A DNA stretch of 64,000 nucleotides from positions 183,178 through 247,177 of the forward strand of contig CAZQZS010000001.1 of NCBI GenBank assembly GCA_964597895.1, read 5' to 3'. This DNA comes from an uncultured Candidatus Saccharibacteria bacterium (GTDB taxonomy: Bacteria > Patescibacteriota > Doudnabacteria > UBA920). The notes below the pieces were generated by a model that saw nothing but the letters and a program-made list of their open reading frames with translations, was not told where the DNA came from and made no database searches. Shown piece after piece: positions 137 through 51,148 of the stretch; the first letter of the stretch is position 1; each line of letters begins with the position of its first letter. Position numbers and translations under genes: made by a program.

Positions 137-541
137 ATGTTAATTCCAAAAAAGGTCAAACACCGCAAGCATCACCGCGGTCATAACAAGGGTAAAGCTA
201 CTTCCGGTAACACAATTGCTTTCGGCTCCTACGCTTTGAAGGCAATGGAAGGCCGCTTTGTTACTGCCCGCCAGATTGAAGCTGCTCGTCGCGCCATGAC
301 TCGTTCTGTACAGCGCGGTGGCAAAATCTGGATTCGTATTTTCCCAGACAAGCCGATTACCGATCACGGTAACGAATCTGTGATGGGTAGCGGTAAGGGT
401 GCGGTATCCCATTTCGTGGCTGTCGTAAAGAAAGGCCGTATTCTGTTTGAGATGGACGGTGTGAGCGAAGAAGCTGCTCGCGAAGCTATGCGCCTCGCAG
501 CGCACAAGTTGCCAGTAAAGTCCAAATTCCTAATTAAGTAA
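137..541 (+). CDS. rplP: 50S ribosomal protein L16
   Basis: 134 aa, [15 protein letters not shown]...; classic L16 N-terminus and operon position. Confidence 0.95.
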
Positions 542-542
542 T

Positions 543-725
543 ATGAAGTATTCATCATTATCCAAAAAGAAAGCCGAAGACATTCGTAAAGAATTGATTC
601 AGCTGCAAGAAAAGCGCGAGAACCTCAGAATGAAAGTGAAGCTGGGCCAGGTTAAGAATGCCCACGAACTTTCTGCGGTGCGCAAGGATATTGCTCGAAT
701 TCTAACTTACTTAAGAGCTAACTAA
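543..725 (+). CDS. rpmC: 50S ribosomal protein L29
   Basis: 60 aa, operon position between L16 and S17, K/E/R-rich helical protein. Confidence 0.85.
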   Translation: MKYSSLSKKKAEDIRKELIQLQEKRENLRMKVKLGQVKNAHELSAVRKDIARILTYLRAN

Positions 726-1816: not shown

Positions 1817-2356
1817 ATGAATCGTTTACAAGAACAATATAATAAAGAGATTGCTCCAGCCTTGAAGGAAAAGTTCGGCTATACCAATGTAATGGCTGTG
1901 CCGAAAATCAAGCAGATCAATATCAATATCGGCGTTGGTAAGTACCTCAAAGACAATCGCTTTATGGAATCAATCCGCAAAGACCTGACAGCTTTGTCTG
2001 GTCAGAAGCCGGTTGAAACCAAAGCGCGCAAGTCTATCGCTGGATTCAAGATTCGTGATGGGCAGGTTGTCGGAATGACAGTCACCCTCCGCGGTCAGCG
2101 CATGTATGATTTTCTGGACAAGCTGATCAGTATCGGTCTTCCACGCGTGAAGGACTTCCGTGGTGTATCTAAGAAAGGCTTTGACCGCCGTGGTAATTAC
2201 AACCTCGGACTCAAGGAACATCTTGTTTTCCCGGAAATTTCCCAAGACGCGCTAGAACACATCTTTGGTCTGCAAATCACTATTGTTACTGACGCAGGCA
2301 AAGACGAGCCAGCTTACGAGCTGCTCAAAGCAATGAAGTTTCCATTTAAAGACTAA
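1817..2356 (+). CDS. rplE: 50S ribosomal protein L5
   Basis: 179 aa, NVMAVPKIKQININIGVG, L5 family. Confidence 0.93.
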   Translation: MNRLQEQYNKEIAPALKEKFGYTNVMAVPKIKQININIGVGKYLKDNRFMESIRKDLTALSGQKPVETKARKSIAGFKIRDGQVVGMTVTLRGQRMYDFLDKLISIGLPRVKDFRGVSKKGFDRRGNYNLGLKEHLVFPEISQDALEHIFGLQITIVTDAGKDEPAYELLKAMKFPFKD

Positions 2357-2378
2357 TCATTAAGTAACTAAATTTTCG

Positions 2379-2478
2379 CTTGGGCTAAGCCTGAGCCGAC
2401 CCGACGTAGTGTAACGAGGTGGGTCGCAGCGAAGGCGCCAGTTAAGCGAAAATTTAAGAGGAGTACTTGGCGGAGGGC
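2379..2478 (+). other. Structured element inside an unusually long (175 nt) rplE-rpsZ spacer; closed by perfect 12-bp stem aaattttcgctt/aagcgaaaattt
   Basis: Inverted repeat at 2379-2390 and 2467-2478 enclosing GC-rich inner hairpins (cgaccc...gggtcg). Confidence 0.5.
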
Positions 2479-2531
2479 GATAGGAATTAGCATTAGCTGA
2501 TACCGATAGCCCGGCAGACAAGTACGACGAT

Positions 2532-2726
2532 ATGGCTAAAAAGAGTTTAATCGCAAAAGCAAATCGCAGTTTGAAGAAACCGAAGTTCTCTTCTCGAGTA
2601 ATTCGGCGCTGTTTGAAGTGCGGCCGTAAAGCTGCTTTCATGAGAGATTTCTCTTTGTGCCGTATTTGTTTTAGAGAATTAGCTAGCCGCGGCGAAATCC
2701 CTGGCGTAGTAAAGGCCTCCTGGTAA
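2532..2726 (+). CDS. rpsZ: 30S ribosomal protein S14 type Z (zinc-binding, 4 Cys)
   Basis: 64 aa with CLKCGRK...CRICFRE. Confidence 0.9.
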
Positions 2727-2730
2727 AACT

Positions 2731-3123
2731 ATGTATACAGATCCAATTTCCGACATGTTAACAAGAATCCGCAATGGGCTTGCAGCAGGCAAGCAGGATT
2801 TGGTAATGCCTTACTCTAAGTACAAGCACAGCTTGGCTAAAGTATTGTTAGAAGAAGGCTTTCTCTCTGGCGTCAATGAGTTGCCTGGCCGCATCAAAAT
2901 GCTCCAGATCAATTTGAAGTATGATAACGGCGGTAGCCCGGTAATTTCTGGCATCAAGCGCGTTAGCACTCCAGGACAGCGCATTTACATGCCTGTCGGC
3001 AAGATTCCTCGCACTAACGGCGGCTACGGCGTGACAGTTGTTTCCACATCCAAAGGTCTAGTTACAGATAAGCGCGCCCGCAAGGATCGCATCGGCGGAG
3101 AAGTAATTTGCCAAATTTGGTAA
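2731..3123 (+). CDS. rpsH: 30S ribosomal protein S8
   Basis: DPISDMLTRIRNG N-terminus. Confidence 0.93.
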   Translation: MYTDPISDMLTRIRNGLAAGKQDLVMPYSKYKHSLAKVLLEEGFLSGVNELPGRIKMLQINLKYDNGGSPVISGIKRVSTPGQRIYMPVGKIPRTNGGYGVTVVSTSKGLVTDKRARKDRIGGEVICQIW

Positions 3124-3138
3124 AGGTTAATCAAATAT

Positions 3139-3720
3139 ATGAGTAGAGTAGGTAAAAAACCAGTCATTCTTCCAAACGGCATTACCGCCGAATTGAAAGA
3201 CAACACCCTGACCATCAAAGGTGGTAAAGGCAGTTTAACTATGACCGTTCATCCAAAAGTTACAGTTGAAATTAAGGATAACGAAGTCTCTGTTGATGTA
3301 GCAAAGAAAGAAGACAAGCGCGAAAAAGCTCTATGGGGCTTGTCCCGCGCTTTGGTTCAAAATATGGTTGATGGTCTGGAAAAAGGTTACAGCAAGCAGC
3401 TTGATGTAGTCGGTGTTGGTTTTAAAGCTGAAGTCCGCGGCAAAGATCTGGTTCTCAACTTAGGTTTCTCTCACCCAATTGAATTCCCAATTCCAGAAGG
3501 CATTGAAGTGAAGGCCGAAAAGGATCCAGCTAAAGTTACTATTCAGCAATATCAGACTACTATTACATTGACCGGTATTGATAAGCAGTTGGTTGGCCAG
3601 GTCGCAGCCAACATTCGCGAATTAAAGAAGCCAGAACCTTATAAGGGCAAGGGTATTCGTTATAGCGACGAAAACATCCTGCGCAAGGCTGGTAAAGTCG
3701 TTAAGGCGGTAGGTAAATAA
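3139..3720 (+). CDS. rplF: 50S ribosomal protein L6
   Basis: [15 protein letters not shown]... two-domain L6. Confidence 0.93.
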
Positions 3721-3721
3721 T

Positions 3722-4075
3722 ATGAACAAGATTCAGCATAAACAACTCAAGCATCAGCTCCGCAAGGGACGCGTGCGCAGCGTAGTTTCTGGGACCACTA
3801 GCCGGCCACGCCTGTCAGTGTTCCGCTCTAATGCTCACATCTCAGCCCAGATTATTGATGACGAAACCGGCAAGACCTTAGCATCCTCTTCTACTTCTAT
3901 TTTGAAAGCTTCTGGTAATAAAGTAGAGCAAGCAGTAGCAGTTGGTAAGGATATCGCTGCTAAAGCACAAGCTGCTGGCGTAAAGGCTGTCGTATTTGAC
4001 CGCGGCGGCTATAAGTATCATGGCCGCGTTAAAGCAATCGCTGATGGCGCTCGCGAAGCTGGCCTGCAATTTTAA
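3722..4075 (+). CDS. rplR: 50S ribosomal protein L18
   Basis: [20 protein letters not shown] motif. Confidence 0.92.
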
Positions 4076-4093
4076 TTCTAATTCTCAATAACT

Positions 4094-4594
4094 ATGGAAA
4101 AGAGATCTCGCAAACCGAATAATCGCACTCCGCAGCAGCCTCGTGAATTTGATCAGAAGGTTGTGGAAGTTAAGCGCGTCACCCGCGTAGTTGCTGGTGG
4201 TAAGCGCATGCGTTTCCGCGCTTTGGTGGTAATTGGTGACCACAAAGGCAAAGTTGGTATTGGTTTGAAAAAGGGGATGGACGTTACTGAGAGCGTCAAC
4301 AAAGCCGTGAATGCTGCAAAGAAGAACATGATTACTGTACCGATTGTTAACGATACGATTCCTCACGAAGTTAAAGTAAAGTACAAGTCCAGCAAACTCT
4401 TGATGATGCCTGCTCGTCCTGGTACTGGTGTAATTGCCGGTGGCGCTGTCCGTAGCGTTTTGGACATGGCTGGTATTAAGAACGTAATCAGCAAAATGGT
4501 TGGGTCTAACAATAAGACTAACAACGTTCGCGCTGCTTACGAAGCGTTCAAGATGATGCGCAGTAAAGAAGATATCTTGGCAGCCCGCAAATAA
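4094..4594 (+). CDS. rpsE: 30S ribosomal protein S5
   Basis: VTRVVAGGKRMRFRALVVIGD...; S5 dsRBD and C-terminal domain. Confidence 0.93.
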   Translation: MEKRSRKPNNRTPQQPREFDQKVVEVKRVTRVVAGGKRMRFRALVVIGDHKGKVGIGLKKGMDVTESVNKAVNAAKKNMITVPIVNDTIPHEVKVKYKSSKLLMMPARPGTGVIAGGAVRSVLDMAGIKNVISKMVGSNNKTNNVRAAYEAFKMMRSKEDILAARK

Positions 4595-48191: not shown

Positions 48192-48437
48192 TTATTCGGC
48201 AGTTGCGTATTCGAATTTGAATTCGCTGGGGTAGCCTTCGCTCATCCATTTGTTAAGTGATTCTTCGGTTGGCGTACGTTGGCATTCACATGAACACTTG
48301 GCTGTTGGTCGGCCTGGGATTTCGATGTCCCTAAAACATTTATGTTCATGAACGCCTAATGCGCGGCACTCTGGGCAAGTCAACTTGCCATCCTCCTCTA
48401 GGATGGGGTTTCCCGCCCTGTCTTCAATTAGTCCCAT
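48192..48437 (-). CDS. Small Cys-rich (putative Zn-binding) protein; start moved to internal ATG preceded by AAGGAGG
   Basis: CPEC...C..C.C pattern; strong SD 8 nt upstream of internal ATG. Confidence 0.5.
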   Translation of the reverse strand: MGLIEDRAGNPILEEDGKLTCPECRALGVHEHKCFRDIEIPGRPTAKCSCECQRTPTEESLNKWMSEGYPSEFKFEYATAE

Positions 48438-48579
48438 TATTAGTTCCTCCTTTGCGGTAAATTGTGCCATAAAGGGTTAAAAAAAGCTACCCCAGCGGTT
48501 AAGCCCGACTATTCCCTCACAGCAAGTAGGCGCGGGAAATCCTGTTGATAAACCCCTCACTGGAAAGGGGGTGGTTTAG

Positions 48580-49089
48580 ATGTATACTCACCAATCTAAA
48601 AGGAGTAAAATAAGAGATATGTGGAAAAGAAGAAGACTTTTACTTTTATTGAAACATCTTGAAGGGTATATTGGTTCTGTTGCTCACAATCAGGGTGTTG
48701 GAATTTGGACTGACGAGGTTGGGGTGGATTCTATTCGTTTCCAAATATTTTATGAGTATCACAATAAGTTGAGATATTTTATTCAATTTGCCTTTAGGGT
48801 AAATAGAGAGTTTTCTCAAGATGAGGAAATACCTAAACCCAAAAAGAAAAGGTTTAATTTAGCTGAGTTTAATGAACTACTTAATGTTTTAGAAAAAGAA
48901 GGGTTAGTTAAAATAACTAAACTAGCTGTCCACGAAAATATAAGAATTACCCTTGAGGGCGAAGAATATATCAAGCCGGCTTATTTTTACACAGCCATCT
49001 TGGAGAAGTTTAAAATTTGGTATGTATTCTTCGCAGGCTTGCCAATAGGGTTTGTTATAGGAGTAATATACGAATATATTGGTAAATAG
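48580..49089 (+). CDS. Hypothetical protein in AT-rich islet (169 aa), C-terminal TM helix
   Basis: Markedly lower GC than surroundings. Confidence 0.45.
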   Translation: MYTHQSKRSKIRDMWKRRRLLLLLKHLEGYIGSVAHNQGVGIWTDEVGVDSIRFQIFYEYHNKLRYFIQFAFRVNREFSQDEEIPKPKKKRFNLAEFNELLNVLEKEGLVKITKLAVHENIRITLEGEEYIKPAYFYTAILEKFKIWYVFFAGLPIGFVIGVIYEYIGK

Positions 49090-49326
49090 GTGTGGATAAG
49101 ATACATACCAAAATGTATTTAATTGATATACAATAGATATATCAGAACTGTTCTTTCAAAATGAAAGAAAAATATAAGGAAAACATATAAAAGAAAAACC
49201 CGCTTGTTTAGAACAAACAGGTTGACTTTTATTGATTTCTAGTTATAATAAGGTTTCTTCGACTTTATTGCCTAGACGCGGGGCATATACTTGGGAGCAA
49301 CTATATCTGAATTTCAGGTAGTGCTG

Positions 49327-49431
49327 TGGAGAGGGCGCCGGGATTTGAACCCGGACCTTGGCCTAAGTTGGCCTGCCTCTGGGGAGGTACAGTTTTCAAG
49401 ACTGTTGCTTTTTCCATTAAGCTACGCCCCC
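49327..49431 (-). tRNA. tRNA-Ser(UGA)-like, 105 nt, with abnormal 34-nt variable region
   Basis: Acceptor GGGGGCG/CGCCCTC, D arm GCTT-AATGGAAA-AAGC, anticodon arm ACAGT-CTTGAAA-ACTGT, T arm CCGGG-TTCAAAT-CCCGG, encoded CCA. Confidence 0.7.
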
Positions 49432-49534
49432 AAGAGTATACACCCCGCGTCTGAGCAATAATAAAAACGCTCAGTAAATTATTCTCTCAGAAATATTTTC
49501 GAAGGGGATGATTAAGAACTAAGTTTCTAGAAAG

Positions 49535-49681
49535 CTACGTTTTCACTGACGTAGTTTTCTGCTTTTTAGGGCGAGCGGGAAACTTATACCACTTGCCTTT
49601 TGCAAGACGAAGCTTGCCTTTGATGTAGATTCCGTTGCAGAATATATAACCATCTTTTTCAAAGCATTGTTGACTAACCAT
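49535..49681 (-). CDS. Candidate small Lys-rich protein (48 aa, CxxxxxxxC)
   Basis: AGGAGG 11 nt upstream of ATG; not in track (short). Confidence 0.3.
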   Translation of the reverse strand: MVSQQCFEKDGYIFCNGIYIKGKLRLAKGKWYKFPARPKKQKTTSVKT

Positions 49682-49743
49682 AGATAGAAGAGCCTCCTTT
49701 CTCTTCAAAAGCACATCTGAAAGAACAATAGGTAGGTATCAAA

Positions 49744-49854
49744 AAAACTTGTACCCGATTCATAATGCAAGGCGCAGAACCCTTTCGGGAATACGCTTTG
49801 TAGCGCATGGACTTTTTAGTTTCCTTGCACTATGAATCCGACACAAGTTTAGTG
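49744..49854. repeat. Palindromic element: ~28-nt near-perfect inverted repeat (aaacttgtacccgattcataatgcaagg / ccttgcactatgaatccgacacaagttt) flanking 50-nt core with two small hairpins
   Basis: Seen directly; adjacent to IS1595 transposase 3' side. Confidence 0.55.
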
Positions 49855-50012
49855 TCATGGCTCTGCCTATCTTGAGGGGGTCCAACCCTGTTTGTAAAAG
49901 TACTGAAATAAATATAGCATATTCAAAAAGCCAAGCAAATAGCTTGGCTGTGGAAAACTGATTATGAATCAAGAACCAGAAAAACAAGACTTCTTTGACC
50001 TCCTCGACGAAG

Positions 50013-50855
50013 CTATTGGTGAACCAGCCGATTTAAAAGCACCAAGAAAATCGGAACAGGAGAGCGAGAGTGAGTCAGACGAAAGCTAAACTCGTTTAAG
50101 TAGTCCTGCAAATATTTGGGCGAGACTCTATGATACGTGCCATCGATAGACCGCTTGATTTGGCTAAAGAAGCCCTCAACGCTGTTGGTGTGAGTCCAGC
50201 CATTAACATACTGCTTACTAGAGTGGTTCACAGAGCTATGACCATAACCCTTTAGGCTCTTGCGGTTATACACCGAAGCACCGTCAGTCATAATCGCACT
50301 GCCGGCCTCAACCTCGTTATGGATTAACGGAATGGTATTGAACTGCTTTATTTTCTGCATTACCACAGCTTTAGCACTACCGCCACGCTGAACCAAACCT
50401 AAAACCTTTGGAACACCCGCCCTAGAGCGTGGTGTTTTCATTTTCTCCAAGTAGGCTTCATCCACCTCAACCACTCCGCTTAGTTTTAAGTCGCTCAAAT
50501 CCATAAGGGAGCGGATTTGTTTAGCGATACGCCAAGCAGTTTTGTAGGTTACACCCAAGTCTCTTTCCAACTCTTTGCCGGAAACTCCATTACGAGAGTT
50601 GGCGAACTTGTAAATGGCGAAGAACCACAAGACTAAATCTGTTTCTGATTTATGGAAGATAGTCCCAGCAGTGGGGTGAATTTGATAAGCACAGCTAGCG
50701 CAAGCCCACGCTTTGCGTTTCTTAATCCTGTGCCAACTAGACTTCCCACAGTTAGGGCAAGGGAACTGATAGCCATAACGATACTTAAAGATATACTCCA
50801 AGCAAGCGTCATTATCTGGGAAGTCTTTTTTGAAGTCTTTTATTGTGTATTTCAT
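50013..50855 (-). mobile_element. IS1595-family (ISXO2-like) transposase gene; IS boundaries not determined
   Basis: N-terminal Zn-ribbon CPNCG...CASC; DDE region with DEAY, TDGASVY, HSSVNHS..YVNG.HTNSVEGFFSQIKR. Confidence 0.85.
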
Positions 50856-51148
50856 ACATTAAAGTTAATTATATTTTGAGAGTAACTCCATACTTACTTG
50901 TTGTCAAGGGATAGTCGGGCGGTTAAGTGTGCATAACTAGGGAGCTATTTCGGAGAATCATCAAAACCTTTTTAATTAAGAGGGTTTTTTTAGTTTTGAG
51001 GTGAGGTATATAAATTGAAAAATGGGTCAGAGTGGGGTATACTGACTTCAAGTGGAATGGAGTGGGGAAAAGTGGGGATAAGTGGGTGGATAAGTGGACA
51101 ACTCAAATCATTCAGATTTCTGAAACTAACAGTAATAGACGCGAAGAC

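Follow-up and report, generated by a model that had tools for sequence, protein, structure and literature searches.

The DNA analysed here, referred to as the window, is a stretch of 64,000 nucleotides (nt) from an uncultured Candidatus Saccharibacteria bacterium that is placed within the Doudnabacteria of the Patescibacteriota (contig CAZQZS010000001.1 of assembly GCA_964597895.1, positions 183,178 to 247,177 of the forward strand). It contains on its minus strand a tRNA gene of 105 nt with the anticodon UGA, in which the region between the anticodon arm and the T arm is expanded to 34 nt and forms two additional hairpins. The gene lies inside an insertion sequence (IS) of the IS1595 family, flanked by a long inverted repeat and accompanied by two open reading frames (ORFs) of the same element. 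All positions without a locus name refer to the window.

A five-armed tRNA gene

49327 to 49431, minus strand (running from 49431 to 49327): tRNA gene of 105 nt including the encoded CCA, from sequence reading, Rfam family RF00005 and the minimum free energy (MFE) fold
49396 to 49398, minus strand: anticodon 5'-UGA-3' in the loop CUUGAAA, from reading, the Rfam alignment and ARAGORN (tga) on versions with the insert deleted
49355 to 49388, minus strand: variable region of 34 nt, consisting of a 29-nt expansion (49360 to 49388) and the 5-nt loop AAGGU (49355 to 49359), from coordinates, deletion test and shuffle test
49376 to 49387, minus strand: extra hairpin 1, CCUC-CCCA-GAGG, from the MFE fold
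49360 to 49373, minus strand: extra hairpin 2, GGCC-AACUUA-GGCC (GGCCAACUUAGGCC), from the MFE fold

Read in the 5' to 3' direction, the tRNA starts with GGGGGCG-UA-GCUU-AAUGGAAA-AAGC-A-ACAGU-CUUGAAA-ACUGU and, after the variable region (A CCUC CCCA GAGG CA GGCC AACUUA GGCC AAGGU), ends with CCGGG-UUCAAAU-CCCGG-CGCCCUC-U-CCA. Direct reading identified U8, A14, G18G19, U33, A58, the T-loop UUCAAAU, the discriminator U73 and the encoded CCA. The anticodon loop is intact with U33 and the A36A37A38 motif, and the D-loop and the T-loop are canonical. An acceptor stem of 7 bp and a T-stem of 5 bp result in a 7/5 geometry, the anticodon stem has 5 bp, and all six helices are fully paired with zero broken base pairs. 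The anticodon UGA would read UCA, and UCG by wobble.

The tRNA model RF00005, which has a curated threshold of 29 bits for membership, covers the gene from 49431 to 49330 with 62.1 bits (E = 4.8e-11 over the whole window). All 71 of 71 model positions are matched, the anticodon is UGA, and the alignment puts an insertion of 31 nt into the variable region. The MFE fold of the 105 nt corresponds exactly to a cloverleaf with two extra hairpins (-40.9 kcal/mol, z = -2.6). For the 34-nt region alone the fold was better than that of 97.8% of the shuffled sequences, and two hairpins of at least 4 bp appeared in just 1.6% of the shuffles; both hairpins are plain 4-bp stems without bulges. ARAGORN in default mode did not call the gene. 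Since the program called a tRNA(tga) after removal of hairpin 1, of hairpin 2 or of both, the miss is due to its length limit, exceeded by the 34-nt variable region, and not to a defect of the gene. The tRNA gene is real and structurally intact, and its RNA has five arms and six helices.

After deletion of the 29 nt (ACCUCCCCAGAGGCAGGCCAACUUAGGCC, 49360 to 49388) a perfect cloverleaf of 76 nt with the variable loop AAGGU remained, which was accepted by ARAGORN. The D-arm of this core, with a 4-bp stem GCUU/AAGC and an 8-nt loop, is of class-I type, and the discriminator is U73. We compared the core with 1,570 tRNAs, which were the ARAGORN predictions across all loci retrieved. The closest bodies were those of tRNA-Trp(CCA) and tRNA-Gly(UCC/GCC), with no tRNA-Ser among the best matches. 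These Trp and Gly tRNAs have the ACAGU…ACUGU anticodon stem and a GCGCCC-type 3' acceptor strand in common with the core, and the tRNA-Gly genes also have U73. Bacterial class-II tRNA-Ser has a single long arm of roughly 13-22 nt with one helix after nt 44-45, a 3-bp D-stem, a long D-loop by which the variable arm is oriented, and G73; the window tRNA has two 4-bp hairpins plus a 5-nt tail within 34 nt, a 4-bp D-stem, a shorter D-loop and U73. The tRNA-Ser(UGA) genes of two other members of the candidate phyla radiation (CPR), L004 from Microgenomates and L006 from Paceibacterota, conform to the usual class II: their D-arm is of the GCCGGAGUGGUUGAA type, the variable region forms a single helix, and the discriminator is G73. 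Judged by its sequence, the core is thus best described as a class-I tRNA body plus an insertion and is not a canonical tRNA-Ser.

A first-pass annotation of the window, made from the sequence alone, had listed the canonical tRNA features, the discriminator U and a 34-nt variable region with two hairpins, without stating that the gene is on the minus strand. Direct reading confirmed the features, the MFE fold and the shuffle test bore out the hairpins, and the Rfam covariance model recognised the gene with the same anticodon. The assignment as tRNA-Ser(UGA) stood as far as a real tRNA with the anticodon UGA is concerned; the attribution to the serine family failed on the class-I D-arm, U73 and the Trp/Gly-like body. 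Its suggestion of a mini-insertion agrees well with the textbook class-I tRNA that is restored when the 29 nt are removed.

The IS1595-family carrier and its other cargo

48504 to 50919, no strand assigned: IS1595-family element with cargo (transporter IS) of 2,416 bp, from its absence in the strain contig L242 and from junction reading
48504 to 48528, plus strand: left terminal inverted repeat CCCGACTATTCCCTCACAGCAAGTA, 25 nt, imperfect, with 21 of 25 positions matching the right end
50895 to 50919, minus strand: right terminal inverted repeat CCCGACTATCCCTTGACAACAAGTA, 25 nt, from junction reading and end comparison
48496 to 48503, no strand assigned: left copy of the target-site duplication CGGTTAAG, an octamer found twice in 64 kb, only at the element flanks
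50920 to 50927, no strand assigned: right copy of CGGTTAAG, which is a single copy in L242
50013 to 50855, minus strand: IS1595-family transposase, 280 amino acids, with the Pfam domains DDE_Tnp_IS1595 (PF12762, 1.1e-33) and Zn_ribbon_IS1595 (PF12760, 6.4e-11)

For comparison we used read-assembly contigs that carry the same neighbouring proteins (L240, L241 and L242). L240 and L241 are identical to the window. L242, with flanks that are 99.3% identical, joins window position 48503 directly to 50920 and represents the empty site. The GC content of the element is 40.1% versus 45.0% for the window, and the closest named relatives of the transposase belong to Candidatus Doudnabacteria and other Patescibacteria. 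An IS1595-family element that moved recently carries the tRNA gene as cargo. The first-pass annotation had located it at the edge of an AT-rich islet next to an IS1595 transposase; this position had to be corrected, as the gene lies within the element itself, and the 27-nt inverted repeat on both sides of the gene had been missed.

The genes flanking the element are bacterial housekeeping genes: a histidine kinase with a response regulator, a SpoU methylase and a dcw cluster with rsmH/mraW, in which an ORF of 576 amino acids matches the FtsI-type transpeptidase of syntenic loci. No tRNA was found at the corresponding site in the syntenic loci of related Doudnabacteria. At least five related Doudnabacteria-like genomes contain an element of this IS1595 lineage between the SpoU-methylase gene and mraZ, with transposases that are 66-77% identical; the spacer insertions face either way, and no two carry the same cargo. 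Related IS1595 elements have the same terminal repeats and differ from each other in cargo; the left terminal repeat is conserved in the elements of L245 and L248. The 8-bp duplications are alike within genomes and unlike between them, with CGGTTAAG in the window (48496-50927) and TTTGCCGC and AAAAAGCT in the other genomes (L245 4926-6843; L298 2648-4245). Because of these differences the insertions look independent and not like one inherited copy, and they strongly favour the region upstream of the dcw cluster. Transposition is indicated, at the level of sequence comparison, by the presence/absence polymorphism together with L245 and L298, whose insertions look independent and differ in their duplications.

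A related element in L304 (67% transposase identity, ends at about 2196-4486) contains a LOOT RNA (RF03000, 70.6 bits) at 3926-4037 on the minus strand, at the cargo position that corresponds to the tRNA unit of the window. This IS1595 lineage may repeatedly carry structured non-coding RNAs.

Around the tRNA gene the element contains the following further features.

49435 to 49461, minus strand: 5' leader arm of a 27-nt inverted repeat flanking the tRNA, from a repeat search and the duplex energy
49265 to 49298, minus strand: 3' trailer arm (49265 to 49291) with a 9-nt extension (49290 to 49298), from a repeat search and folding
49197 to 49223, minus strand: terminator-like hairpin plus T-run, located downstream of the tRNA trailer, a pattern match from a consensus scan
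49222 to 49249, plus strand: sigma-70-like match TTGACT-16-TATAAT (11/12), antisense and pointing into the tRNA
49528 to 49561, plus strand: terminator-like hairpin, from a consensus scan
49535 to 49681, minus strand: ORF48, a basic protein of 48 amino acids (MVSQQCFEKDGYIFCNGIYIKGKLRLAKGKWYKFPARPKKQKTTSVKT) with an AAGGAGG ribosome-binding site, in the same orientation as the tRNA leader and directly upstream of it
48580 to 49089, plus strand: ORF169, 169 amino acids with a hydrophobic C-terminus and a weak winged-helix-like signal, convergent with the tRNA
49745 to 49850, minus strand: second long hairpin with a 28-bp stem (86% paired), about 50 nt enclosed with two small hairpins, followed by a U-run, from a repeat search

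The leader and trailer arms form a duplex of -43.3 kcal/mol, with 23 Watson-Crick pairs, three G·U pairs and one mismatch on the tRNA strand. Among the four positions where the repeat is imperfect, three give G·U pairs on the tRNA strand and one does so on the opposite strand, a weak sign of selection acting on the RNA of the tRNA strand. The inverted repeat is unique in the window, and the tRNA-Gln of the host has no comparable leader/trailer stem. For the precursor of 221 nt a free MFE of -91.2 kcal/mol (z = -6.7) was obtained; the cloverleaf and the 27-bp stem coexist at -88.3 kcal/mol. The free MFE structure is an 'anti-acceptor' fold, in which the 9-nt trailer extension pairs with the last three bases of the leader and the first six bases of the acceptor (49426-49434). 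An interpretation of the repeat as the ends of a nested miniature inverted-repeat transposable element found no support: no further copy of it occurs in the window, and no target duplication borders it. An Rfam scan of 48400-51000 at E <= 5 gave no match beyond the tRNA, neither for the stem-tRNA unit nor for the second long hairpin, which is located between the transposase terminator and ORF48.

The terminator-like hairpin at 49197-49223 may act bidirectionally and thus also serve ORF169. Both strands of the window together have just five sites with at least 11 of 12 matches to the sigma-70 consensus, the antisense one included. The plus-strand promoter-like site together with the plus-strand terminator would yield a transcript of about 300 nt that is fully antisense to the tRNA and its flanking stem. 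In searches of 5.8 billion proteins ORF48 and ORF169 found only themselves and no other homologue, and neither could be placed in a protein family. ORF48 has no Pfam or PADLOC match, and the sole PADLOC match of ORF169 is a weak one to the CARF3 model (E = 0.005).

Structural relatives and other unusual tRNA genes

A metagenome scan for tRNA genes that combine a class-I D-arm with a stretch of 32-52 nt from anticodon to T-loop returned 49 loci. Most of them were class-I tRNAs with a duplicated 3' half, archaeal intron tRNAs or tRNAs of phage arrays with a single variable hairpin. True structural relatives of the window gene were found at two loci, L294 (JACXTT010434480.1) and L289 (Ga0137829_11124800), and both have the anticodon GGU. 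Their variable region has the form G-[8-bp hairpin]-U-[GGCC-N6-GGCC]-AUGAU, so that all three genes agree in the order of their elements: 1 nt, hairpin 1, a further 1-2 nt, GGCC-N6-GGCC and finally a tail of 5 nt. Hairpin 2 of L294, GGCC-AACUAA-GGCC (GGCCAACUAAGGCC), equals that of the window at 13 of 14 positions; L289 has GGCC-UUCGAA-GGCC. The acceptor strand of L294 is nearly the same as in the window (GGGGGUG vs GGGGGCG), and both genes contain the D-loop AAUGGAAA. Hairpin 1 of the two relatives is unlike that of the window in sequence, with the pairing kept, and is 8 bp instead of 4 bp long; both relatives have A73 and no encoded CCA.

A MAFFT alignment of the three genes misplaced the length difference, and base pairs were counted on a hand-built structural alignment. 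The six helices are paired in all three genes except for one C·A in hairpin 1 of L289. Between L294 and L289 we counted compensatory double changes at two pairs of hairpin 1, five pairs of the acceptor stem and one pair of the T-stem. These changes between two independent genes show that the expansion is not noise and is maintained as an RNA structure in the tRNA(GGU) lineage. The variable regions of L294 and L289 fold better than shuffled sequences (p = 0.001 and 0.02), and the genes score 64-68 bits with the Rfam tRNA model, although ARAGORN calls neither. The anticodon GGU suits a class-I Thr body, and from their sequences the two look like working tRNA-Thr genes. Given the same expansion on a tRNA(GGU), serine identity plays no part in that lineage. 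No description of these genes was found in the literature. On the short, GC-rich contigs of L294 and L289 no leader/trailer inverted repeat, IS1595 transposase or element ends were detectable. The contig of L289 encodes at 490-708 (plus strand) a NikA-like mobilisation protein with 26.5 bits against a cut-off of 27 bits, a weak hint of a location on a mobile element.

Two specific scans of viral contigs and BLAST searches of phage and plasmid collections with the whole stem-tRNA unit revealed nothing similar. A scan of a genome collection for tRNA(UGA) genes with a long gap between anticodon and T-arm (floor 28) yielded no orthologue among the matches listed. The long-gap cases among these matches were only archaeal intron tRNAs (L021/L036) or assembly duplications, and the rest were ordinary tRNA-Ser, many bacterial tRNA-Ser(UGA) genes having somewhat long variable arms of 22-26 nt. 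Several other candidates were rejected as family members. In L251/L264 (UCG) the extra sequence is in an extended, intron-like anticodon arm, with a free MFE of -42 kcal/mol versus -33 kcal/mol for the cloverleaf-constrained fold; L250/L273/L287 (UCU) show the same kind of arm and were excluded on the fold alone. The acceptor stem of L268 (UCC) is broken, and the 112-nt array genes of L271 and L276 have a different fold.

The scans also revealed tRNA genes that are unusual in other ways. Twelve loci (L253, L254, L258, L265, L269, L277, L278, L283, L284, L285, L288 and L292), several of them large phage-like tRNA arrays and others short contigs, contain a tRNA(UAU) with a class-I body and a single variable-arm hairpin. 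Its 7-nt loop has the sequence C-N-GAU-N-N, and the tRNA-Ile(GAU) of the same arrays has the loop N-C-GAUAA. The tRNA(CUA) genes of L271 (3299-3390) and L276 (4088-4181) have the variable-arm loop CUCCAAA/C, where CUCCAAA is the anticodon loop of the tRNA-Trp(CCA) of the arrays. ARAGORN labels these genes Ile(tat) and Pyl(cta). By sequence they look like natural 'pseudo-anticodon' variable arms, which in the literature found have been explored by engineering only (PMC7590224). In L261 (3266-3342, plus strand) the whole anticodon arm of a tRNA(CUU) is perfectly duplicated in tandem (ACAGGCUCUUAACCUGU, twice), either as an assembly artefact or as a natural tRNA with two anticodon arms. Ten loci (L262, L270, L275, L255, L274, L290, L257, L280, L291 and L297) have a class-I tRNA followed within 10-40 nt by a second 3' half or a T-arm-like hairpin. 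In the cases with a duplicated 3' half, consisting of T-arm and acceptor strand, the pattern is the one expected at attachment sites of integrative elements.

Interpretation and comparison with known systems

With a probability of roughly 0.5, we favour the explanation that in this Doudnabacteria-like CPR bacterium an IS1595-family element, transposed not long ago, carries an intact accessory tRNA gene as cargo. An ordinary class-I tRNA would have gained a 29-nt module of two hairpins between the anticodon stem and position 44. The hairpins would stay in the mature tRNA and project to where class-II variable arms lie, away from the faces that contact the ribosome. We suppose that the tRNA is transcribed as its own small unit, that the 27-bp leader/trailer duplex probably acts as a processing or insulating stem, and that the RNA is aminoacylated and reads UCA/UCG. 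Recognition by seryl-tRNA synthetase (SerRS) is independent of the anticodon and dependent on the variable arm (review PMC7609411). Because this enzyme is blind to the anticodon and recognises a long variable arm, SerRS would be the likeliest enzyme to charge the window tRNA. U73 and the class-I D-arm, however, are foreign to tRNA-Ser, which makes mischarging or no charging real possibilities.

Several observations weigh against an accessory tRNA. All available copies (window, L240 and L241) are identical, so the window copy provides no independent evidence of selection. The consensus scan gave no convincing promoter on the tRNA strand, and the best consensus promoter near the tRNA points antisense. 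U73, the 4-bp D-stem and a 4-bp hairpin 1 that starts 1 nt past position 43 are atypical for bacterial SerRS. The architecture is known from just three examples, and both relatives are located on short contigs. A codon-supply rationale is absent: UCA is hardly used by the three genes of the element (2 occurrences) and ordinarily used by the host (7.9 per 1000 codons), and a role in codon supply was rejected as UCA is enriched in neither. All three stop codons are in use, which indicates a standard genetic code.

The foremost competing explanation, which we regard as possible though clearly doubtful, is a non-translational tRNA-like RNA that serves the element as a regulator, a decoy, a partner similar to those of toxin-antitoxin systems or a ligand of the orphan proteins. 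The extra hairpins would then be protein-binding tags, and the leader/trailer stem or the antisense transcript would set the level of the RNA. The closest precedent is provided by the allo-tRNAs, irregular metagenomic tRNAs with an enlarged variable region and in some cases possible five-stem junctions, which are associated with transposon-related genes and toxin-antitoxin loci and have an uncertain role in translation (PMC5389517; PMC7609411). When six allo-tRNA(UAU) variants were given a CUA anticodon and tested in E. coli, none acted as a suppressor (Mukai et al. 2017, NAR, PMC5389517). A class-I body combined with a Ser anticodon and U73 matches no bacterial identity set. The strongly basic ORF48 directly upstream on the same strand, the strong antisense promoter-like site and the terminator that bracket the tRNA gene, the missing codon-supply rationale and the LOOT RNA carried as cargo by a related element point in the same direction. 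On the other hand, every feature needed for translation has been kept, including U33, A36A37A38, the T-loop, the D-loop and the encoded CCA. The GGU relatives look like working tRNA-Thr genes with the same expansion, and the cargo proteins are orphans that belong to no recognisable system.

We judge it improbable that a tRNA gene or fragment was captured together with other DNA into the IS cargo and, as a non-functional hitch-hiker, still looks intact only because the element is young. With identical copies throughout, intactness says little, this IS lineage exchanges its cargo freely and carries mostly orphan ORFs, and a promoter on the tRNA strand was not identified. However, the gene forms a tidy unit, with a 27-bp stem that shows a G·U bias on the tRNA strand and a terminator-like hairpin downstream. 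Its six helices contain no broken base pair, and its architecture is common to genes with compensatory evolution.

A further and somewhat less probable explanation concerns a 'mis-wired' tRNA. Here a class-I body similar to Gly, Trp or Thr tRNAs, with U73, would read UCA with a non-serine charge or would be charged by SerRS only via the hairpins, and the module would be a portable aptamer tag. The hairpin module would recruit a protein, namely a synthetase, a modification enzyme or the cargo proteins. The module on the tRNA(GGU) genes and the variable-arm loops of the phage arrays would then point to a general and so far unrecognised strategy in which the variable arm is a second recognition handle.

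Very improbable is the excision of the 29 nt, or of hairpin 2 alone, as an intervening sequence to give a 76-nt class-I tRNA, an intron-like element as the first-pass annotation had considered. Once exactly these 29 nt are deleted, a perfect class-I tRNA does remain whose variable loop has the canonical 5 nt, and archaeal intron tRNAs (L251/L264, L021/L036) surfaced in the same scans as examples of true intron cases. But L251/L264 look different from the window gene, which has no bulge-helix-bulge motif and carries its insert after position 43 and not at 37/38. A self-splicing group I intron would be about ten times as large as the insert, and the host is a bacterium with a bacterial-type tRNA-Gln and dcw cluster. 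We know of no bacterial enzyme that cuts and rejoins at this site. In intron mode ARAGORN proposed 'Phe(gaa) with a 15-nt intron', a contrived solution that gives up the perfect anticodon stem for a stem with a mismatch and a G·U pair, and it was rejected.

The idea that this is simply the normal tRNA-Ser(UGA) of the host lineage with a clade-specific long arm, also raised in the first-pass annotation, is hardly credible: the anticodon, the long variable region and the common 22-26 nt arms of bacterial tRNA-Ser(UGA) speak for it, but the gene is part of a transposable element, absent from the 99.3%-identical strain L242 and from the syntenic loci of related Doudnabacteria, its body resembles class-I Trp/Gly tRNAs, the tRNA(GGU) genes have the same expansion, and the CPR genes L004 and L006 are canonical class II with G73.

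If the gene is functional, a class-I core with 7/5 geometry tolerates, and in at least two lineages maintains, an expansion of the variable region by two hairpins. This would be a natural tRNA architecture in addition to class-II arms, tRNA-Sec and allo-tRNAs. To our knowledge it would also be the first tRNA gene that travels as a passenger of a simple DDE insertion sequence and, again if functional, a very small vehicle that moves a decoding, mis-decoding or regulatory tRNA between CPR genomes with minimal tRNA sets. Due to the length limit of ARAGORN expanded tRNAs may be under-counted in metagenomes. The two-hairpin layout offers a natural template for the engineering of hairpin-tagged tRNAs.

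A literature search found neither a two-hairpin variable region on a 7/5 tRNA nor a tRNA as an IS passenger, although absence there is not proof. Like the allo-tRNAs, the window tRNA combines an enlarged variable region, an anticodon that does not match the body (a Ser anticodon on a class-I body) and a link to transposons, here a position inside an IS. Unlike them, it has a 7/5 acceptor/T split and a 4-bp D-stem, whereas allo-tRNAs have an 8/4 or 9/3 split and a long D-stem, and its expansion consists of two short hairpins and not of one long arm. Allo-tRNAs come from Acidobacteria, Clostridia and Proteobacteria; the window host belongs to the CPR, and the tRNA lies within the terminal repeats of the IS. 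The resemblance is therefore one of context, and with its 12-bp branch not divided 8/4 or 9/3 the window tRNA is, by sequence, not a member of this group.

With bacterial class-II tRNA-Ser(UGA) the window tRNA has in common the anticodon with the loop CUUGAAA and extra structure between the anticodon and T arms. In the canonical form the D-arm is of the GCCGGAGUGGUUGAA type with a 3-bp stem, a single helix takes up about 22 nt, and the discriminator is G73, in contrast to the class-I D-arm, the two hairpins within 34 nt and U73 of the window gene.

YrlA, a bacterial Y-RNA-like RNA with a Ro-binding stem, consists of an incomplete tRNA-like module closed by a long stem of its 5' and 3' ends. 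The window RNA likewise has a tRNA-shaped domain enclosed by a long duplex of the transcript ends, but it possesses the whole anticodon arm, the acceptor stem and CCA and is therefore a full tRNA, not a mimic. Identity with Y-RNA or YrlA was rejected, as there was no Rfam match even at E <= 5 and the tRNA module is complete.

IS1595-family elements reportedly can carry passenger genes, and they typically produce a target duplication of 8 bp. The window element agrees with this description in its DDE_Tnp_IS1595 domain with an N-terminal Zn-ribbon, its terminal repeats, its 8-bp duplication and its extra genes. It differs in that the passengers are a tRNA gene and orphan ORFs, and in that its lineage inserts repeatedly into one intergenic spacer. 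At the sequence level the vehicle shows every character of an IS1595-family element with passenger genes.

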